A stretch of 64,000 nt of DNA. It comes from Pseudovirgaria hyperparasitica (taxonomy: Eukaryota). Both the position numbers and the translations under genes were made by a program. Under the pieces are notes generated by a model, which was not told the origin of the DNA, made no database searches, and saw nothing but the letters and a program-made list of their open reading frames with translations. The DNA lies in the NCBI GenBank assembly GCA_010093815.1, contig ML996566.1, one strand, 5' to 3'. The stretch's first letter is position 1. Every line of letters starts with the position of its first letter. Shown one piece after another: positions 1-51,554 of the stretch.

Positions 1-572
1 TACATTTCGACCATAATCCGTCCGCAGCAACAATCATGTCGCAATGGTACTCCGCACCGGATTCAGTGGTCACTCGTGGTGCATCAAAGTCGATATTCGA
101 TACTCTCGTGCCTAGCTTCACAGCTACGCCCAGTTCATTTGCGCGTCTGGCCAGTTCCCGTTGCACATCTACACGATGCAGATCCCAGAACGGCGCGCCA
201 TATCTTTCACGCATGTGCACGTTGAACTGATCGTCCTTTGCCAAGAGCTTTCCGTCGGAGTATCGATGGACTGATAGGACGGTGGGCTCTGCGGCGGACT
301 GTTTGAGGCGATCATACACTCCCCATGCCTGGAATAGCCGGGATGCATTGGGAGTTATTTGTAGGCCAGCTCCAACCTATATCGTTTGGATCAGTTTCTG
401 CGGTCGATATTGCGAGGTTCAATAGTTTTACCTCAGCGAGCTCCTTGGCGCTTTCTAATATGGTCACTTTGTGTCCATGAAGAGCGCATGATATTGCAGC
501 AGCCAGACCTGCAAGTCCAGCTCCGACGACGATGATGTCAAGTTGAGAAGATGAATGTGTCCTGGCAGCCAT
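1..572 (-). CDS. FAD-dependent monooxygenase, salicylate-hydroxylase-like (5' part; gene continues past the left edge)
   Basis: ATG at 572. Rossmann motif IIVVGAGLAGLAAA. Intron 431..377 (GTAAAA...ATAG) joins ELAE to VGAGLQITPNASR; exon 2 continues open to YGAPFWDLHRVD...IVAADGLWSKC, typical class A flavin hydroxylase motifs. Confidence 0.9.
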
Positions 573-1058
573 TGTCACATTGAACGTTCGTGGGCACTCC
601 AGACAGACTGATTATAGATACATGATGAGTTGATGAGGGTGTTTATGGTTATGAGAAGAGATGCGATCACCTAAATCACAGACATCAAAGTAGTTACGGG
701 CAAGTCGGCACCTTTCTGTGGATCATGTCACGGCGTTGACGGTGAAGCCTCGGAAAAGCCAGATGAGATATTTTGCCAGTTCGGTTAACCGTTACATCGA
801 GATGGAACGGTCGAGGCCGTGAGCCCTGCCTATTTGCCTGGAAAGGGCCAGCCTGTTGCGCCACTGGACTTGCGAGCTGTGATAGATGTGGTCCTGGTTC
901 AAGAGGTAACATGGAAGAGTTATGACGGAGCGCGGGCTTCGAAAGCGGGAGGTAAATTTCGAGATCAAGCATGCCGGAGAGGCGTTGTCCAGACGGGCAA
1001 GAACTCCCGTAGAGGTTGTTGCAACAAGGTGGAGATGTGGAGATGTGGAATGTGGCTT

Positions 1059-1069
1059 CGGAATTGCCG
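1059..1069. promoter_or_regulatory. Candidate Zn2Cys6 site CGGAATTGCCG (CGG-N5-CCG) in the monooxygenase/TF divergent promoter
   Basis: Seen in sequence; same pattern recurs at 5726, 5816, 9978 and 10020. Near match CGGAAAAGCCA at 751-761. Confidence 0.55.
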
Positions 1070-1339
1070 ACTGTTATTGTAACAGTTGTGTAGACCTTAA
1101 TAGATGATAGGAGCATATGTCGGGGTCGGTGTCGGCTTGCTGACATAATACACAGGCGGCAGTACTTCGGTGAGTATCATGAATAGGCCTGAAAATACAG
1201 GCATCAAATAGTGCCCTCGCCGATTGGTCAGACGTTGCTACAGCTGCGCTAAACTTCGTTAGGATGTGCACACTCCGTGTATGTACGAAATGAGAAGTCA
1301 CGTGCTTTGCTGTATCAGTTACCCCCGGTCGAGCGTTTC

Positions 1340-1370
1340 TCCGCCTCCGCCTCCGCCTCCGCATCCGCAT
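1340..1370. repeat. (CCGCCT)n/(CCGCAT) hexamer microsatellite
   Basis: ccgcctccgcctccgcctccgcatccgcat. Confidence 0.7.
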
Positions 1371-1772
1371 TGGGAAGATGAAGACGCACGTGGTGGATAA
1401 TGCTTCGGGCACGATCTGAGCCTCAATCAGACTGTTTGCAGTCAACTTCACCTACTATCAGACGTTCCTGGTCAGGGACAGTGAGGTGTCTGCATGCTGC
1501 AAAGCGACAGAACACGAGAAATCCGAATCAAAGTTCAAACCTCTGCCGAAGGGGGCATAGCTCGAATTTGGTAGCTTGCAGCAAGGTTCCAACAGACACC
1601 TCACCTTACCGCACCACACCCGCTCTGTCGATCTGCCTGTTGCGAAAACCTAAATCGACCTCGACCATTCCTCGTGTTTCCAAACGCCAACCTCAATTGA
1701 AACGGAGGATTTTCTACCTTCGTCCTCGATGTCTCTTCTTCTCTCAGCACATTCTTCCTCCGTGGCAGCACC

Positions 1773-4204
1773 ATGAATCCTCAACAGATGCCGGCTGCCG
1801 CAGCGAGCAGCTCCGCTGCAACAGCCCCCAAGAGAACGAGACGCCCACGCGCTATCCAGGCTTGTAACTTTTGTCGATCCAAAAAGTACAAATGTGATGG
1901 CGCATGGCCGTGTGCGCCATGCCAGAGTAAATCTCGCATGCTGAACTGACATCCACAATCACCACTGACCACCCATCTCAGAGCATCGCGAAGAATGTGT
2001 CTTCAGAGGTCAAAACCCTGCAGCAGGGGGCCCAGTTTACTCCGCAACGTAAGTTGCAATCCTCGGAAGATGCATTATGATGAAAATAGCATGCGTTGCG
2101 ATGGATGCAGGTTCCAGCAGTGACCATATGTGATTATCGTGCGCTTGTGCTGATTTGAAATCGACTCGGGCATTGGCTGAGTCTTTAAACAGTTATGTAC
2201 ATGACCTGGAAAGACGATTACGCCAGGCTGAGAGTGCTCTCTCGTCTCCTCAGGCCACTCACAATGCTTCCGGTCTGGTGAGCTCTGCAAGTCAGCTACA
2301 CACCGAAGCGACACGCAGCACGATGCTGACCCCATCCTCTGGCACTGGCAACGACAAGTCTACCATCCTCAAATCAACAGAGATTCGTCACGAGACTACG
2401 CCGGATACGAGCGATGACGGCGAGACAGAAGTTGTAGATGTCAACCCCATTACGTCATCCATTGAGTTTCATGGTAATTCTTCGTCAATGGCATTTCTTG
2501 GCCGTGTCCGCCAGGAGTATTCTGCATCGCCAGACGAACCAGTTCGAGCTGGATCAGAAAGGCCCTCGCTAGTCAGCGCTTTTCAGAATACCAATTTCGG
2601 TGCTCAAAATGACAGAATCATGAACTGGAACGATGGATTCGATGAACGACTCTTCTCTCCTCAGCTTTACGTCTTTGTGGAGACGTACTTCAGCAATCTC
2701 CACTACATCCATCCTATCATAGATCAAGCCCACTTTCTTCGACGTTGCGATGACCTCTGGCAAGGCCACCCCGAACGCCAACCACGGAGTTTTATTGCCA
2801 TGTATTTTGCAATGCTATCACTAGGCTCTTTGATACGAAATTGGACCGAGGAGAGAATCAATGATATGGGACGTTTTGATTGGAGCCGCATGCTCTTCGA
2901 GAGAGCGGAGCTCGCGCTCGGGAAACCCGGTTATCTGAACGATCTCGAAGCTATCCATACGCTTTTCTTACTGGCCAAAGTCTGCCAAAATGAATTGAAT
3001 CCAAATTTATCATACATGTACCTGGGCGTCGCCATTAGGACCGCACTCTCGATTGGCTTGAACCGGAATGCCTTGCCAGGGAGACATACAGCAGACTCGC
3101 CCGAGGCACACTATCTATCACGGACGTGGTGGGGCCTATACTCTCTCGAAATGGAACTCAGTTTCGCGCTTGGCCGGCCAGACACCCTCGGCATGGAGGA
3201 CTACCACAACAGACCGAAACCACCTGTCGATGACTCCGAGACCGGAATATTGACCAGTATGCTTGGGCTCGCTCGGATCATGCGTTCGACTTCAATTAGC
3301 ATCTACCTGAGTAAAGCTACCATTGCCGAGAAGCTCACAAGAGCTTTTGAGATTGAGGCTGATATTGATGCGTGGGTCCAGACGTTACCAGTCAGAATCA
3401 GACCGAACATGACGCCTGATCATAAGCGGAATGCTCTGACAGATCCAACATGGGCACAGCGTCAGCGAATGGTGTTGCAGATCCGTTACTATAATGTCAA
3501 AATGCTCTTGCTTCGCCCATGCGTGGTACATGCAGCCAAGCTTGCTGCTCAGAGCCGACCTCTACCGACAGGGATGGAGGAGGCGATTGCCAAGTGTACA
3601 GATGCGGCCGCCAGTACTATTGAGATTATCTACGAAACATGTCGTCTTCACGATTTCTTCCGTACATGGTGAGTTCGGATTCATTTTCTGACTTCTTAAT
3701 AGGGCTAACTACCACAGGTGGTACAACACAACATACGTGACATTCGCAGCATCCATTTTACTCTTCATTGCCGCTCAGCCACAGCTCTCGTCGTCATCAT
3801 CATCTTCATCACACCATAAGCCACCTTATTTACCCCTCATCGACCAGTCACTTGAAATCCTCGATGCTATGCATGAATCAGTGGTAGCTCGTAAAACTGC
3901 TGGCATAATGCGGCAAATGGTAGCAAGGTTCCGCGAGAGAAGCACTCCTTCCTCACAGTCCCCACACAGCCAGTCTGGTTCTCTGCCCGTTCACAGAGTG
4001 CCTAGCGCCCCGAGGTATATTGTCCAAGCTGCACCCGGCCAGCAGCAATTCGTTCCAGAACCGCGGTTTGATGCGGTTTTCCCAGAAGCTGTTGGTAATC
4101 CGAGCTTTGGTCTGGGTATGTGGGATCTGGCGGGTCCGCAAGGAGGTTACGGAACCTGGGATTATACTAACTTCTCAAACGATGTCTACTGGCAGGGGGG
4201 ATGA
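1773..4204 (+). CDS. Zn(II)2Cys6 transcription factor with fungal-specific TF middle domain
   Basis: ATG 1773; ACNFCRSKKYKCDGAWPCAPCQK|HREEC binuclear cluster across intron 1927-1981. Further introns at 2049-2192 and ~3669-3717. Middle-domain motifs YFSNLHYIHPII, AIRTALSIGLNR, RTWWGLYSLEMELSFALGRP. Stop 4202-4204. Confidence 0.92.
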
Positions 4205-4525
4205 AAATCCGGGGTGGAAGAGGTTCGACCACTTGCCGCGACACATTCGGCTTTGCAGCACTAGAAGGAGGAAGCCGAAGGCCCTTCTGGCTTTCATTCC
4301 TCGAAAGTCCCGTACTTCCGAGCTTCAAACATTTGCGAGGAAGACTGTTTTGAGCGCATTATCTCAAGGAGAGCATATCGGCAGCCAAGACTATGGCATA
4401 AGTCTCAAGCACAGAGGCCAGCGACTGCGCATATCTGGGGGTCCTTATTGTCCACGAATCCGATCGAATTGAAGAGCATCGATCGGGTGCCGGCGCATGA
4501 CAAAGGACGTGTTGATCGTCCATTC

Positions 4526-5544
4526 CTAGAAGCCTGGACCCCTTCCGACAATCTTTTCGAGAAAATCGAACCCTTTCCTCTGTTCGTCCCAGACTTTACT
4601 TCCCTTGACCATCTTTCCGGCAAAGGTATGTTTCTCGCCTTCGATCTCGATCATCTCGGCATCGACCCCATAATCCTTCATCCGAGCGTACAGAGCGCGG
4701 CTCAAATGAACCGGGACCATGTCATCGGCAAGCCCATGCACGATGCACACTGGTGGCCATGTGGCAGACACGTTCTCACAGGGGTCAATTGCCGCTAGAT
4801 TCCCGTCTGGTTGAATTGTCTGGATTACCTCACCACGTGATATTTTAGTCAGTGCGAATGCAGTTCGTGGGTCGTCCTTGGGTGAGAGCTGGCCTTGGCC
4901 TTCGAGCGACATTCCACCAACGGTCGGGACCGGGCCGTCAAAAATGCGGTTTATGAATTCTTCTGATACATCGGGTGTGGGCACGTGTGCGAGTGGTGTG
5001 GTCCAGATAGGGTCCTTGAGCGAGGCTGGGCCATAGAAGTCGAGTACAGCAGCAACTGGGCGGGAAACACCGTATGCCTAGTATATGAGCTACGATCTGC
5101 CATGTAGGGGGCCGCAATGTCAATACATACCAATCCCAGAGCCAAGTGACCTCCAGAGCTCGTACCAAAGCCCATGACACGATCTGTATCTACTCCAAAC
5201 TTTTCAAAGCCGTGCGCCCTCAAAGCTTGATAGAGTCCTCCGTCATAAACCCAAGCCAAAGCATCTCTACAGTCTCGTAACGGGCCGTCGAGAATACTGA
5301 CTTGTGGGCAGAGGCGATGATCTAGGGCAAGGACAATCCAGCCACGATCAAGACAGTTTTGGACCTGATCCTTGTTGACCATGCTTGAGGATCCCAGCAT
5401 GAAAGCCCCACCATGGATGTTAAGGATCACGGGATACTTGGTAACTGTTGATGGAGTAGACGACGGGAGGTAGACATCCGTCTCGATCTCCAGGTCGGGT
5501 AGTGTCTTGTAAGGAACGCGGAGGGTAGCATTGAGTGAGGCCAT
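4526..5544 (-). CDS. Alpha/beta hydrolase, HSL-type carboxylesterase
   Basis: HGGA oxyanion motif, LDHRLCPQ, nucleophile elbow GTSSGG, HGLADDMVP (Asp) and GEKHTF (His). Intron 5130..5078 joins the two ORFs in frame (GL|AYGVSRPVAAVLDFYGP). Confidence 0.9.
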
Positions 5545-5725
5545 GGATCACAAACGTGGGTAGAGAGGGTCTAGATGAAAGATAAAAGATACAAACAAGC
5601 AGGTATTAGAACTACGAGGCGCCACCATTTCCAACAAGCGAGCGGTCAGGTGACATAGTAGTTGTACACCGCATTGCACATAACAACTCAGGACAATCAC
5701 AGCCACTCACATTTCAGCTCATGTC

Positions 5726-5826
5726 CGGAACATCCGTCTTGGACTTTCCCCCAAGCCTGTGATTCTTCATTGCGTGGCTTCCGAACGAACGTCCATTCAC
5801 AGAGGTGGATCTAGTCGGATCTTCCG
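5726..5826. promoter_or_regulatory. Two candidate Zn2Cys6 sites in the esterase/dioxygenase divergent promoter
   Basis: CGGAACATCCG at 5726-5736 and CGGATCTTCCG at 5816-5826 (CGGAAGATCCG on the minus strand). Confidence 0.55.
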
Positions 5827-6137
5827 GATAGCATCGAATTGCTCAGCTTGTCCCCACGCTCTGATCAGGAAAAGCCGTGCCAACAGGAATCCGAGCTGGA
5901 TAATCAAGCAACAGAAGCTTTACTGCAACAGGCCCACTTGTTTTCGCGCAGACTTAAGCTTTCGCAAGGCAGCAAAACCCGGCGGCTTTTGTAGAGGGAG
6001 CGGTTGAGGGGCACGGGAGACGACGGACTCCAACAATCATACACCAACGTAGTTAACGAACTGTTAAAGAGCCTGTACGGGCACAAGTACACAGAACGTC
6101 TCTTCATAAGTCATATCAGCAGCAATACTCTATCACA

Positions 6138-7316
6138 ATGTCTACTTCAACATCTTCCAAAGCCATTCCCACCCATGATTCACCTCCCATCCCACCCGCG
6201 TCCACCAGCACATACATCATCCCGCAGCTCTCCGGCGAGCTCGTCTCAATCCCGGGCTCCAAATCCGTTTTCCGCATTCTCGCCTCCGAGAAACAAACCG
6301 GCGACGACTCCATCGGCGTCTTCAGCTCCGGTGGCGCCCTTGCCGACGCCCCTGGCTTCCACCACCATGAGCGTGCACACGACATCTTCATGGTGACAAA
6401 AGGCGAGCTGAAGCTCTGGGTTGGCGACTCATGTCGAATCCTCCAAGCCGGTGATTTTGCGAGTATACCACCGGTATGTCCCTGAAGCCCTCTTTGCTTT
6501 TGCCCAATTACGCTTTTTCTTCGATACGACCATGCCTCAGCTGACAGCAGCAACAAGAAAATAATCCACAACCCGCACCTCCTCGGTCCCATCACCGAAA
6601 CGTACGGCCTGATCCACCCGTCCTCCTGGATCGATTTCTTCCGCTACGTGTCCGAGCCCACCGACATCCCCAGCATCATCTATCCAGAGCAAGACTCGCG
6701 CTCCTTGCCCGCCCTGCTCGTCCCCAAAGTCATCGCCGCCGCAAAAGCCGGCAAGGACTACGATGTGCATTTCCACCGCGAGCATGTCGGCTGCGAGGTC
6801 GCTCCCTGGTCCGATGCAGACACCGTCCTGCCCGACGGCGAGGCGCCCTACTACCTGCGCGCAAACCGCGGCCCGCGCTGGATCCTGGGCGGCGTGGTCA
6901 GTAGGCCGTTCATCACGGGCACGCAGTCGAGCGGCAAGTTTGCGATTACGAGTCTAGAGGGCTCGAGCCACTTGGACGCGGGGCTGAATCCGCTGGCGGC
7001 GCCATTGAGGTATGCGGTGCATCATGTGCTGGTGGTCATGGAGGGCAAGGCGACGATAAACGTGGAGGGATATGCGCCTGCGACACTGACGGAGGGCGAG
7101 ACGGTGTTTGTGCAAGCGGGCGTGGCGTGGGGCGTGGTGTTTGAGAGTCGGTTTGTGAGGATTTGGAGTTTTTCGAGTGGGGATGGGGTGGAGAGGGTGA
7201 TTGAGCGGGCAGGGAGGCAGTATACAGAAGGATATGTGGTGCCTGACAAAGCTGAGTCTTGGGATGCTCAGAAGTTTGAGGAGGTGTGTAAGGAACTACA
7301 GGTTAAGGCTGCTTGA
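6138..7316 (+). CDS. Quercetin 2,3-dioxygenase-like bicupin (no signal peptide)
   Basis: Cupin motif 1 PGFHHHERAHDIFMVTKGELKLW; motif 2 GDFASIPP|KIIHNP across intron 6474-6557. Second cupin PYYLRANRGPRW...RPFITGTQSSGKFAITSLEG...LTEGETVFVQAG matches the fungal quercetinase layout. Confidence 0.8.
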
Positions 7317-7827
7317 TTGTTGGATAGACACATTACGATATACTACCTACAGCAATGCTTTGGCACTTCGGCAATACTTTGGTACGGTACATAACACAAA
7401 ACTTCACGCTATTTGCATTTCTGTGCCCATGTGTCTGACGAAAGAGGAAACCTATTCGGCGTCCGTCGTTAGATATCGTGGTGTTTTGTAAACCTTTTCA
7501 CGCATTTCCGCGTCAACATTCACACGTCACAGACGGGCTTATTTGGACCATTTAATGAATACTGTATGCGAATCCTCTTGCTTCCCGCACCAATCACACA
7601 ATTGCAAAAACAGGAAGCAATCCAGGACGTCGGAGTGTCCACATCATTGTAAATCTTTTTCTCCCGGTCAAACTATGTGTATAAAATCTCAGCTTGTCAC
7701 GCACAGGACCCCACGATATCTTATGTTATTGACATATTACGTTAAATGCTATATCAAGACTATAAGGCTTTAGGCAGACGAGACAAAGCATTCAGCCTAT
7801 CACACTGGCTCTTCGAACCATCGCAAC

Positions 7828-9651
7828 TCAGTGCTCCACCTCCCGAGGTAGCCACTTTTCCGTAACAATTCTGAGTCTTTTACCCCAAACCCAGATCGGG
7901 ATGACCATCAACGAAAACAGTCCCATTAGACCGCCAAAAACACCAAAAGGTACCGCCGGACCAGCAGACGTAACCCACTCGCCGACGAAGAATGTCCATG
8001 AGAAAGCGACGATGGCACGCATAGTTGTTACAGCGACGAAGCAGTCCCCAGAAACGGCGTTGTAGGACTCGATCAACTATCATTCAAGTCAGCGAAATCC
8101 ATCCGGAGTGTGTCAAACAGCAAAGTAGACTCACATAATTGAACCCAACGCTTGGTGCCTGCATCAAGCCAAAAGCCAACATTCCAAGTCCGACTTCCAT
8201 TCCGACCCATGCCTTGGGCAGAGAACTCCACGCGCTAAAGCCAAATGTCCACAATCCACAAGTCGCCAGGAACAAACCTGGCAACGTTACCGGGAGTCGG
8301 TCCTCTGCCTCGGATAATCCATGGCTCCCGTGCTTCGCTTTGGATGTAAGAGCATGATCTACGCTGAGATACGTAGCTGCGGCACCAAGAACCGAACCAA
8401 CGAGACCACCGACGTTGATGAGACCAGCGTTTGCGCCCCAGAGGTACGGGGGCGAGGCAACGATCGTGGGGCCGACCGTCGATATGGCGACGATACCACC
8501 AACGAGACCTGCATACCAGAACATGACCAGCCACACGCCAGGCAGGCGGAGAGTTTTATACGGAGCAAAAAAGCGGCGCAATAAGCCTGGGCGGTATGTA
8601 CCGATTTTGAGCGATCGAAGAAAAGAGTAGGAGCCCGTGATCTCATTATGATGGGTTGTAGTCTGCTCAAGGCGGATATCTGGAACCTTCTCGTGTGTGT
8701 CTAAGGATGGTTCTTGTCTGCTGTTGAGACCTAAAACCTTCTGCCGGTCAAACATAGTCTCTGGCGCGAGGAAGAAGCACAGGACAAGTGTGATCGCGGC
8801 TAAAATTACGTTAATCCAATGGATCCATGGAATCCCCATGTTACCCGCAATATAGCCTCCTGATATCCCACCGACTAAAGAGCCGGTCAAAAGGAAAATT
8901 GTGTATACGCCCTAGGGGATGCGTCAGTGAAGGAAATGACATACAAGATTCTCTTTGCTTACCATTGCTCGTCCTGTCTGGTGAGTGAAGAAGATCTCCC
9001 CAACTACGTCAGGGGATACTGGGAGGGAGACATTAGCTCGATCCTATCACACGGTAGGTTTCTTGAACTAACCAGCTTCTGAAGGAGCTTGTCCAATACC
9101 CATGAAGACGCGAGCGGCAAGGAGACTACTGAAGCTTGTTGCTAAGCCCGCCCACATAGATGAGAAAACGAGGAGCACCAGGCTGATCAGGATAACAGGC
9201 CGGCGGCCAAACGTGTTCGCCAATGGGACCCACCAAATGTTCGCAACACCTTGCATGAGAACATTGACAGCGATCAGTTGAGAAAGTCTTGAAAAAGCCA
9301 CAGGCGGATTGAAGGCTAGCGGTGTCGCAAGGAGCGGGAGCGCGCTGGCAATTGACGAAGACGCGAAGTTCCCGATGAAAGCGTCTATGGACATGCAAAG
9401 AAGGATGGCTATCTTACGCCACATGGGCCAATTCAGAGGATCTGCTGCATCGGAAGACGGTTGAGGCACCAAACGCAAATGATGGATATGGCCGGGCTCA
9501 TCGTCAAAGCGCTGGGCTATGTACAATGTCAGTGAAACGAAATAGACTCTATTGGTGGCATGGTAGTACCGATCAATCTGGAAGTCCCAGGGGGTGTTGC
9601 TTCCGCCAACTCCTGCTTCGACAACGAAAAGGCGTATTTGAAGCTCGCCAT
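7828..9651 (-). CDS. MFS transporter (DHA1/Hol1-like)
   Basis: ATG 9651 (MASFKYAF). Motifs LVPQPSSDAADPLNWPMWRK, PLANTFGRRPV, SLLAARVFMGIG, EAEDRLP, NY|IESY. About 12 hydrophobic segments over 5 exons. Confidence 0.9.
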
Positions 9652-9977
9652 GATGTGCGGATGTTCAAGATCGAGAGCACATCAGACCATCAATGGCAGA
9701 TTGAGATGTATAAATAAAACTACTGCTGAAGCGTAAACCATAGCCCAGACCATCTCGCATAATTGCTGGCCTGAGTGTCAAGTGTCCCCTGTCACAGGTT
9801 AATCGTGCGGGAGCTAATCCTTTCCGTGTATTCTACCCCATGGGGGTGGCTGGCTTTGCATCGAATGAAGACGTGGACAGTTTCGTGCAGAACGACTCCA
9901 CATGTTCCGGCAACAAGCGACGGTAGATCAGATCACAAAGATCATTCATGCTGCATAACGGGTATGCTCAGGCTATG

Positions 9978-10030
9978 CGGAAGAGCCGAAGTGGTCGATT
10001 CGGTAAGGATGAAGCATTTCGGAAATGCCG
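9978..10030. promoter_or_regulatory. Two candidate Zn2Cys6 sites upstream of the MFS gene
   Basis: CGGAAGAGCCG at 9978-9988 and CGGAAATGCCG at 10020-10030. Confidence 0.55.
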
Positions 10031-10790
10031 GCCCCACAAGGGAGAACGTACACCCATGCCCTTGCTGAAGCCTGATTCGTACTCCTCCCGTCCGCTACGG
10101 CGTCAAGCCGGAAGCGGTCGAGATCGGCAAACAAGGTTCGAGATGATATGCCTTTCTCGAGACACATCCGCTTGCAATTGTCGCGAGTGTTTGATTGCAT
10201 GCCTCTGATGCGCTATTTTATAGTAGCTAGGGTGACACCCTGGACGAGCCGAGGCTACCGACCGCTAAGATCAAGCGGTTTGATATGATAACAATCATGA
10301 CACGGCGGCGACGCTCATTTGGTATCTGATTATAGCTATCAGGGCCCACAAAACCGGTTTGTGTATTGCCATCGTTCTACTGCATAATCACGCGTGGCAG
10401 TGCTGCTGTATCGGATCAATCAAATGCTGAGTGTGGGTGTGGATGTCTATACTTACAAGCAGGCGGATGTACTGAAACTGTTGTTCAAATCTTCGGCGCA
10501 CATGATAGATGTTGGCTGATGAGATGGTAGACGGAGTTAATCCAGGTATCAATCCAAAGACACGGGGGTGACTTCCGAGGAATAGGCGACGCGACGCGTT
10601 CACATTGACGTTGAACCTTCCGCTTTGTAGGGACAACATTTCCCCAGTATTGTTGTATCACATCCCATTAAACAATGTCGTCCGCCTCGAAACACCCTCC
10701 ATGAAAAGACCACGCAAGCGGAAGACTTCAGAACCCTCATTTCACGGTCATACAATCTACTGACCCACATCACTGCGATCAAGGCTGACG

Positions 10791-30806: not shown

Positions 30807-31188
30807 GTCGTCAGAACGCCTGGCTAGTCGGAAATCCCAGCCTCGTGGGCACCAGTTGATGTGTCTCCAACTGCCCGGTTTCGCGTTGGAGTGCCGCTGC
30901 GAGTTTGCCGAAGATCTGCCGCATCTACCACAGGTGGGAACTTAACGTCCGGATCTGTACCTTTCCGTAAACAGGTGGGGCGTCCTACGTTGGAGCGTTC
31001 GTGCCATCATCGACTGGAATTATGCGAAAAGTATCTTCTATTGACCGAGCATCCGTCCAGACTGCCAAATCCATCGCCACTGTTCCTGATGCTCCGGTGC
31101 GGTATGTTTCACCCTATCAAAAGGTCCAAGTGACGTCCAAATCGGGAAATTGTGTGTAAAGCAAACCTACGCATCACGAGGCGCAATA

Positions 31189-48802: not shown

Positions 48803-51554
48803 TTTATCGGTCGAATATTTCCAGAAATTGTGTGTGCGTGTATAAAATTCGGTGAATCCAAAGGCCTCGTGAGGACATGTAGAATCGGTACTGGCTCCGA
48901 AAGTCGTACAAAAGCAAACGCCCCAGAGATCCCACGGCCACAAAAAACCAGCGATAGACAGGCGAAACCAGATGAATCGTATTAACGCTGCAACAGACGA
49001 GCAGACACAGGTCATTACATATATAGTACTTCCGCCCAGCCCAGGGCCCTCTGCTGCATCATCCATCCATTCTCAATGTCGGTAGCGACCGAACACACAC
49101 GCGCCCCCCTGAGGTTATGGCCTAATCAAAACGCAGCACTCCTCACCGCACCCCCCCGCCAGCATACACGCCAGGGGCCTAAACTTAGCCTAAAGCAGCC
49201 TACGCTCCACCCCCCCGAGGCCCCAAAACTCGCGCTGCTGCGTCTATGTGCGGCTCACACGCACGACCAGCCGCAACGGACCAGTCTCAGTCCACTCCGT
49301 TCAGCGCGGATACCGCAGCGGCGCACCTGAACTGAATAATGAATTATATAGATACGCAGCGAGGTAAGTGGTTCATGTTCACGGGTTCCACATAACACGA
49401 TGTTCCGTGGAGAGTCGCAATACGGCAATACAAGAGCACAAAGAGCACGCTTGACGTGTCTTGCCACACACACACATACACGTCCTGCCGGGCCAGGCAA
49501 GCCGGATGCGAAGCGAAGCCAAAGTGCCACAGCATAATAATGTATGGATGTCCCCATCGAAAGTGCGTATGGCGTCTTCTTTGCATCGCATCCTCTCGTT
49601 TCGCCAGAAAGCCAGACGCCAGACGCAGCAGCATACGACGTCCAAAAGACCGGTTCGGGTTCTGACATATGTGGTGGGACATAGACTTTTTTTCTATGTC
49701 TGTTCTCCATTAATTACCACTGTTGAAAGTTTGTGCGACGAATTTCGCGTGTGTATGTATGTATGTGCGTGTGCGTGTCTTGGACTCTTGGTGGTGGTAG
49801 CGGTGGAGCCAAAAGGGGTCTTCGCTTTCGATAGTGACTTCGCTGCAGAGCCAGCCCCAGCAGCACACCGTACGGTACGGTATAATAACAGCGAGGAGGA
49901 GACGAGACTTTTCAGTGGGAGAATCCATACAATAGTTATCCCACTTCCGTAACGGGTATAGAGGCAGCAAGCTGACATGCATCTCAAGGGTTCGCAACTC
50001 CGTTCGTACAACGTCCAAACGAGGGATCATCTCAGCTTGTACAGTGATGCGTTCGTATCGATGACCTTTCTCCCATACAGCCCAAGGAATCGTCGTCTCT
50101 AAATTGAATAAAATTATTGATTGCATAGCACCAAACGAATATGTTTAGTGCCCTCCTAATTAATAATTGTGACGAGAACTCCCTCCCTGTTTTCACCGCT
50201 GGCTGGTCCGAGACTTTTCCTTCAGGAGAACAGACAGCCGACCAAGCGGAACACATCATCCCTGCCGAGATCCCGCATCACGCCATGATTTAGCTAGGAA
50301 ACACACACAGACACTGACAAGACACACACACCCCGCAGTCTCCATAATAGTACGTACCTACATTATACATATCCAGACTTACCAACAAGTAAGTACATAA
50401 TTCCTGGGCCCGAAACGCTCAAATCGCCAGTTTTCTTTGGGGGGGTCTTTTTTTTCCCCTTTTCATTATCCCGACAATCGGAACGACCGGCCGGCTGGAA
50501 CAGCTAATAATAACAAGAAAGAAAGAAAAAGACTTTCCATAATTACCTTGATTCTTCCAGCCCAGCATCCATCAGTAATTACCTAGGCTATTAGGCTCAC
50601 TGATCTGAATCCCGCGTAAACATAAGCATGCTGTATGTACACATGTAGCATTGTAGATCCCGCGGGGGTTTCGTCAGTTCGCCGCCGCCGCCGGAGAAAA
50701 TTCCTGCGCTGCGTGCAGTGTAATGCAGTGCGTGCAATGCATGGCATATGCAGCATGGAGATTACATTTTATATCCTCACATACAGTGTATATATGCACG
50801 ATACAGTGCAGTGCACACACACACACACTGCAGACTAACACCCCTCGGCCATGGATATGCACTAATTAATTAGAGTCCTCCATCCAGCGTCCCGGATGAT
50901 TATTCCAAAGCAAAGACCCCTCCTCCATGTGCGAACCTCAGCTAGCTGCACGCACGCCCCCTCAAATGAATATATATATATGTATATCCGTGTTTGTTAG
51001 GTTTCAGTCCAGAACATTCCATACTATATGCCGTGAAACATCGAGGAAAAAAAAACAAAACCATGTCAATATGACGCGCGGATGTGGTTTGTTTGGGAGT
51101 GGTTGAGGGCGGGGTGTGGTAGCACAGTACGCCTTGTAAGAAAACAAAAACAAAACACAATAAAGAAAAAAAACATTTCAAGATACACGCAGGCATGATG
51201 GATCTGTAGATTGCGTTCTAATATAAAATCCTTCCGAAGTCGGCAATTGCCCTGCCGAAGCTAGCTGTACTCGTACATATTACTTTGACTCCCGGGTGCA
51301 TGATACATGATTCCTTCCTTTCCAGTTCTTTTATTGTATTTCCAAAAAAACAAAGAGTCCGTAACTCCTGTGCTTACGCTTGCTGCATTGTGGCAGGCAG
51401 GCAAAGCAGTTTCATCGACATCAGCTGGCTTCGTGCTAGATTAGAACTATAGCATATGTGTAAAGAGGTAAAAAAAAAAGTCTGACGCAACGATTGGGTA
51501 TCGAGAGGCGGCAGACAGAGAACGATAAACAAAAAAGGTTACAATGTGATACAA

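Follow-up and report, generated by a model that had tools for sequence, protein, structure and literature searches.

Gene cluster and copies of the motif

We analyzed a stretch of 64,000 nucleotides from Pseudovirgaria hyperparasitica (contig ML996566.1 of assembly GCA_010093815.1; the whole stretch is hereafter called the window) with regard to the gapped motif CGGAANNNCCG (CGGAA-N3-CCG), which recurs in the promoters of a gene cluster. The first 11 kb of the window hold five genes, encoding a flavin adenine dinucleotide (FAD) monooxygenase, a Zn2Cys6 regulator, an esterase, a quercetinase-like bicupin, and an MFS transporter, and housekeeping genes such as PGA2, mitochondrial L30, and Sec31 lie beyond this cluster. 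Six copies of the motif occur in the window and five of them fall inside the three promoter regions of the cluster, i.e., the monooxygenase/regulator interval (571-1772), the esterase/bicupin interval (5546-6137), and the region upstream of the MFS gene (9651-10789), which together comprise 2,933 bp. All five of these sites (1059, 5726, 9978, and 10020 on the plus strand, 5816 on the minus strand) had been named in an original prediction made from the sequence alone, and each was found where it had been placed, as were the sixth copy at 50479 and the near match CGGAAAAGCCA at 751-761. The coordinates of sites and genes are collected in Table 1.

Nine stretches bounded by GT..AG or CT..AC were skipped by contigs of the RNA-derived runs X3 and X4 and retained in the DNA run X1, which fixed the introns of four cluster genes. 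Since the X3 and X4 contigs cover all five cluster genes, all five are transcribed. Spliced contigs back the gene models and introns, and all three regions are true promoter regions of cluster genes, as had been proposed. The depth of the X3/X4 contigs was near zero at bins 1162-1492 and 7451-7781, from which no conclusion was taken.

The nearest solved relatives of the bicupin were Bacillus subtilis YxaG/QdoI (E = 8e-12 and 4e-11) and the Aspergillus japonicus quercetinase (E = 2e-6), and the residues of its metal site (H75, H77, H81, D82, and H116) were invariant in an alignment of 22 relatives. The database entry identical to this protein is named putative dioxygenase of P. hyperparasitica. 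Judging from these similarities, the cluster probably degrades flavonols.

Enrichment of the motif within the window

Dinucleotide shuffles of the 64 kb contained 1.61 copies on average, and six or more copies were reached in one of 100 shuffles. This mean translates to about 0.07 copies per 2.9 kb, and the original estimate of roughly 0.1 expected matches was therefore right for a motif named in advance. Because the motif was picked after looking at the sequence, every gapped 8-mer (arms of 3-5, gaps of 0-12, both strands) was counted in the three promoters as a post hoc correction. CGGAA-N3-CCG was the top non-repeat pattern, and the sole other gapped 8-mer with five matches derived from a CCGCCT/CCGCAT microsatellite at 1337-1372, in the monooxygenase/regulator intergenic region. 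In shuffled promoters, some pattern reached at least five matches in 16/100 cases; when the pattern had to occur in all three regions the figure was 10/100, and when both arms had to hold CGG/CCG it was 0/100. The case that the enrichment goes beyond chance therefore comes from the orthologous promoters described below.

The sixth exact copy (50479-50489) lies inside a stretch of about 2.5 kb (49-51.5 kb) devoid of long open frames and of Pfam hits. This copy and the near matches at 30829 (inside the Sec6 coding frame) and 42172 were taken as background; no aromatic-catabolism gene with a recognisable domain was found near 50479 or 42172, and the best near matches outside the cluster fall in housekeeping genes such as Sec6.

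Conservation in orthologous promoters

A total of 80 metagenome loci encoding bicupin relatives, with up to 10 kb of flank, provided an independent test, since the motif had been fixed beforehand. The five proteins of the window were mapped onto these loci by tblastn, and the upstream region was defined as the esterase-bicupin interval or as 1 kb upstream of the bicupin. The regions were clustered at 80% identity over at least 100 bp and one was kept per cluster, resulting in 29 non-redundant regions (21,755 bp) among loci L001-L056. The strict motif was present in 11 of these 29 regions. When the gap was varied, CGGAA-Nx-CCG gave 14 matches at x=3, which correspond to 13 distinct sites since a perfect palindrome among them counts on both strands, and 0-3 matches at each other x from 0 to 10, and four scrambled controls gave 0-2 matches each. 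Over the other 233,435 bp of these loci the motif occurred at 0.086 per kb, from which 1.86 matches would be expected against the 14 seen (Poisson P=1.2e-8). The strict motif was enriched 7.5-fold, compared with 2.9-fold for plain CGG-N5-CCG, and in an unbiased count of gapped 8-mers it tied for first place with TCCCCACA. Conservation in orthologous promoters, the test that had been set beforehand, was thus observed in several distant lineages and at the N3 spacing only.

The consensus derived from the sites was Y-CGGAA-[A/G/T]-[A/T]-[C/T/G]-CCG-R. The triplet pair CGG...CCG is kept in all five window sites and in all 13 distinct orthologue sites, and the perfect form CGGAA-N-TTCCG is present in L003, L041, and L023. 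Whole sites also recur: the 11-mer of the 5816 site plus its trailing A is found unchanged upstream of the bicupin in L023, L035, and L050, the 11-mer of the 10020 site in L039, and CGGAAAAGCCG, which is the exact form of the 751 near match, in L040 and L056. A scan of the window with the orthologue-site matrix involves some circularity, the core having been fixed at the time of site selection, and was used solely for ranking near matches; the 10020 site obtained the top score of the window (17.5).

The x=3 background in the rest of the loci was two to ten times above that of the other spacings, owing to further copies in other promoters of the same loci. In L027 two such copies, 41 bp apart, lie directly upstream of a GH3 glycosidase gene, and others directly precede the genes for a sugar transporter (L044) and a flavin mononucleotide (FMN) reductase (L039); the glycosidase and the sugar transporter fit the use of flavonol glycosides. 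The relatives of the monooxygenase and of the MFS transporter in L035 (18.3-20.4 kb) have no strict site upstream.

The esterase is divergent to the bicupin in 9 of the 29 non-redundant locus groups and co-oriented with it in a tenth (L012). An Aspergillus-like lineage (L023 1970-3055, L035 7615-8844) has a DUF3500 gene instead of the esterase divergent to the bicupin across the site-bearing promoter. Site pairs with a centre-to-centre distance of 41-42 bp recur in the window (9978/10020), L003 (7108/7150), L037 (3359/3401), and L027 (1722/1763); this distance of about four helical turns hints at cooperative binding of two dimers.

The regulator and its co-occurrence with the motif

The regulator matched PF00172 in its first exon (E=5.2e-6) and PF04082, Fungal_trans, with E=8e-17. 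Its N-terminal zinc cluster is joined by a linker of about 15 residues to a heptad-like stretch, beyond which lies the Fungal_trans domain. The public model of this protein has 610 amino acids with PF04082 alone, the zinc-cluster exons having seemingly been missed; spliced contigs support exons 1773-1926 and 1982-2048, which leads to a regulator of about 727 amino acids including the Zn2Cys6 domain. The six-cysteine pattern was kept in 19 regulator relatives. The heptad-like stretch follows the linker in most relatives and is absent from three Fusarium proteins, and the combination of zinc cluster, constant linker length, and heptad-like stretch is common to the Dothideomycete, Eurotiomycete, and Lipomycetaceae relatives. 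These conserved features fit the fixed geometry of the site, as in Gal4-class factors. No functional name or characterised orthologue was found among the best 120 of 203 regulator relatives. The regulator is the only Zn2Cys6 gene within the cluster.

A regulator orthologue is linked to the bicupin in L003/L048, L041, L023, L035, L044, L045, and L043. The motif was found upstream of the bicupin in 6/6 groups with a linked regulator orthologue and in 0/7 groups in which no regulator was seen and the locus extends at least 5 kb to either side (Fisher 1/1716, calculated by hand). This is the pattern expected if the regulator reads the site, weakened by the relatedness of the groups. Within the bicupin tree, only the clade of the window has the motif, in 9 of 14 locus groups (9 of 12 when at least 287 bp of upstream sequence is present), and it was found in 0/10 groups of the sister clade and a more distant fungal branch. 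Named Dothideomycete, Aspergillus, and Sordariomycete proteins belong to the window's clade, as does one protein of a Lipomycetaceae yeast. A bicupin and a relative of the regulator apparently lie on one contig in Lipomycetaceae yeasts. In L023 (4054-7846), L035 (10001-13896), and L045 (6909-9325), the regulator directly follows the bicupin on the same strand, 300-400 bp apart.

It had also been suggested that the regulator may control its own gene through the 1059 site. A strict site lies directly upstream of the regulator orthologue in three of seven regulator-bearing groups (L023, L035, and L044), in keeping with this suggestion, and none is present there in L003/L048, L041, L045, or L043. 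The single site of the monooxygenase/regulator promoter in the window is common to both genes. The suggestion is thus supported only in part: autoregulation is possible and is not a conserved feature.

A second conserved word

The word that tied with the CGG motif, TCCCCACA, is often extended to TCCCCACA-N2-CCGA and gave 12 matches in the 21.7 kb of upstream regions versus 7 in the 233 kb elsewhere (expected 0.65), an enrichment as strong as that of the CGG motif. It is located upstream of the bicupin in L001, L008, L012, L015, L029, L031, L036, L051, and L052, and also in L035 and L037, i.e., mostly in promoters without the CGG motif. The GTGGGG within this word agrees with SYGGRG, the CreA/Mig1 consensus, and the word could be a sign of carbon catabolite repression or of another regulator. 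Shorter forms of it lie in two of the window promoters (Table 1).

Table 1. Coordinates of motif copies, related words, and cluster genes in the window
Feature	Position	Strand	Remarks
Near match CGGAAAAGCCA, one mismatch	751..761	+	179 bp from monooxygenase ATG
Site CGGAATTGCCG	1059..1069	+	Divergent monooxygenase/regulator promoter; 487 bp to monooxygenase ATG, 704 bp to regulator ATG
Site CGGAACATCCG	5726..5736	+	Divergent esterase/bicupin promoter
Site CGGAAGATCCG	5816..5826	-	Divergent esterase/bicupin promoter
Near match AGGAAAAGCCG, one mismatch	5867..5877	+	Orthologue-site matrix score 12.2
Site CGGAAGAGCCG	9978..9988	+	326 bp upstream of MFS ATG
Site CGGAAATGCCG	10020..10030	+	42 bp from the 9978 site
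CCCCAC, reverse of GTGGGG (CreA-type word, presumed consensus)	5852..5857	+	Esterase/bicupin promoter; shorter form of TCCCCACA
CCCCACA, shorter form of TCCCCACA	10032..10038	+	Separated from the 10020 site by a single G (10031)
FAD-dependent monooxygenase (salicylate-hydroxylase-like fold class)	1..572	-	5' part only, gene cut by window edge; ATG 570-572
Zn2Cys6 / Fungal_trans regulator gene	1773..4204	+	Exons 1773-1926, 1982-2048, 2193-3667, 3717-4204; ~727 amino acids
Alpha/beta-hydrolase esterase gene, BD-FAE / Abhydrolase_3 type	4526..5545	-	Intron 5077-5129
Bicupin related to quercetin 2,3-dioxygenases	6138..7316	+	Intron 6473-6556
MFS transporter gene	7828..9652	-	Four introns

Proposed function and alternative explanations

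CGGAA-N3-CCG is a real and anciently conserved element, a Gal4-type site with a 5-bp spacer. It is probably the upstream activating element of the catabolic cluster, most likely bound by a homodimer of the clustered Zn2Cys6 regulator. That it is the site of the cluster's Zn2Cys6 factor, as first proposed, is supported by its conservation and by its co-occurrence with the regulator, from which we infer the binding itself. Fungi encounter flavonols such as quercetin and rutin both as defence compounds of plants and as a source of carbon, and the rutin pathway has long been known biochemically. In the scheme that we infer, which extends to dimeric binding, the direction of regulation, the inducer, and the substrate, a regulator homodimer would occupy the site with one zinc cluster per CGG. 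Each bidirectional promoter carries one or two sites, through which a single factor would activate the four structural genes together and perhaps its own gene as well. The bicupin would open the quercetin ring, the esterase would split the resulting depside, the monooxygenase would act on a product in a further oxidation, and the MFS protein would import or export. This assignment is based on similarity only and on the classical rutin pathway, in which flavonol ring opening is followed by depside hydrolysis and further oxidation.

Several observations weigh against activation by the clustered regulator. The strict motif is absent from 18 of the 29 orthologue promoters, including the own-clade groups L001, L016, and L036. 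After the post hoc correction the enrichment in the window by itself is weak to moderate and suggestive, being equalled in 10-16 of 100 shuffles when the pattern is left unrestricted. Of the seven groups without regulator and motif, six fall in the sister clade or among distant paralogues, which leaves L016 (L016-18) as the sole informative negative within the window's clade. At L039, which carries the motif, no regulator lies in the 1.3 kb upstream or the 8.5 kb downstream. The substrate of the bicupin is assigned by similarity only (E ~1e-11 to bacterial quercetinases). Moreover, RNA-derived contigs cover the sites at 5726, 5816, 9978, and 10020, and the RNA contig of the monooxygenase ends at 1051-1079, beside the 1059 site, with that of the regulator beginning some 500 bp further on. 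Under the sampled condition the sites may thus lie in transcribed leaders, which would be unusual for an upstream activating element.

That the window copies are merely the chance product of a motif chosen post hoc, as the 16/100 promoter shuffles containing some gapped 8-mer with at least five matches might suggest, is hardly credible, since the pre-specified motif recurred in 11/29 independent orthologous promoters where 1.86 matches were expected, with N3 alone enriched and with identical 11-mers such as that of the 5816 site. Both the clustering and the tree argue against these loci being near-duplicates of one lineage. The cover of four of the five sites by RNA-derived contigs, together with the self-complementarity of the perfect form CGGAA-N-TTCCG, would be compatible with an element acting in the RNA, where long 5' leaders would contain it as a short hairpin or a protein site. 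We consider this very improbable: with respect to the closest gene, sites are found in either orientation; what is conserved is the pair of CGG/CCG triplets and the length of the spacer, while the inner bases needed for pairing vary; and the contigs reveal neither transcript starts nor strand.

Conservation shows function and not the identity of the binder, and the conserved cis-element might instead be bound by another factor, either an unlinked Zn2Cys6 protein or a protein of a different class recognising the GGAA/TTCC core, in which case the clustered regulator would use a different site or control other genes. No linked regulator is visible at L039 or L028, both of which carry the motif, the strict site is missing from four of seven regulator promoters, and the equally enriched TCCCCACA indicates that more than one factor acts on these promoters. 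On the other hand, the motif occurs in all regulator-linked groups and in none of the regulator-free ones, and an inverted CGG pair at a fixed spacer is the signature of a Zn2Cys6 dimer, for which the cluster has a single gene. We therefore regard a different binder as unlikely.

Beyond the binding of the clustered regulator to its site, one may tentatively extend the proposal to an ancient pair of regulator and site that defines a flavonol-catabolism regulon in Dothideomycetes, Eurotiomycetes, Sordariomycetes, and possibly Lipomycetaceae, lineages that lost the linked regulator having rewired the bicupin to TCCCCACA-N2-CCGA. This wider regulon is a possibility that we do not favour as it stands. 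If it were true, the pathogenicity phenotypes published for the Verticillium quercetinase, whose gene model contains a transcription factor domain (PMC4462102), might in part reflect loss of this regulator.

Comparison with known systems

In a literature search, the only printed cases of CGG-N5-CCG were Neurospora crassa CLR-1 and a list of AtrR-dependent promoters. Literal spellings of the motif returned, among the matches listed, apparent cloning primers or unrelated work, and no described regulator or binding site of fungal quercetinase or flavonol clusters was found. The CLR-1 motif is given as CGG-N5-CCG-N-CGG in the excerpted text of the preprint (bioRxiv 10.1101/2021.06.08.446897) and shares with the window element the inverted CGG pair and the 5-bp spacer. 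The third triplet, however, is absent at 5/5 window sites (flanks CCG-a-ctg, CCG-t-ctt, CCG-a-cta, CCG-a-agt, and CCG-g-ccc), and CLR-1 controls cellulases, whereas the window cluster would serve aromatic or flavonol catabolism.

Two published loci resemble that of the window by description, and orthology is in both cases a lead. The Aspergillus flavus 'cluster 32' combines a Zn2Cys6 factor, a salicylate-hydroxylase-type enzyme, and a quercetin dioxygenase, i.e., the same gene types; in the text portions of that paper no DNA-binding site turned up, and the sole 'motif' was a protein heptapeptide (PMC7663156). VdQase of Verticillium dahliae, a cupin quercetinase located inside the cell, has a gene model of 1,047 residues that includes a fungal-specific transcription factor domain (PMC4462102). 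As far as these excerpts describe it, this combination of cupin and transcription factor domain resembles the order of bicupin and then regulator in L023, L035, and L045, and the 1,047-residue model may be a bicupin/regulator pair merged into one. A text search of excerpts of that paper, which did not cover 'motif' or 'binding site', gave no mention of 'promoter'.

With a conserved pair of regulator and site, the regulon becomes predictable in any genome by scanning. For work on plant-associated fungi, the pair also provides a bidirectional promoter that can be induced and a defined target for knockout. It is useful for the annotation of fungal catabolic clusters and leaves the understanding of such clusters unchanged.

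Inverted CGG triplets at a fixed spacer are typical of Zn2Cys6 dimers, and in the Gal4 class the architecture of zinc cluster, linker, and heptads sets the spacing between the two triplets, as in the sites of Gal4 (CGG-N11-CCG), Put3 (CGG-N10-CCG), and Ppr1/UaY (CGG-N6-CCG). The window element differs from these examples in its 5-bp spacer and in requiring AA directly after one CGG. It resembles them in its two inverted CGG triplets at a specific conserved spacer, with a flanking T/A preference of the type TCGG...CCGA. The likeness extends to the cluster, whose regulator has a zinc cluster, a linker, and a heptad-like stretch and whose sites lie in the bidirectional promoters of the pathway cluster that encodes this regulator.

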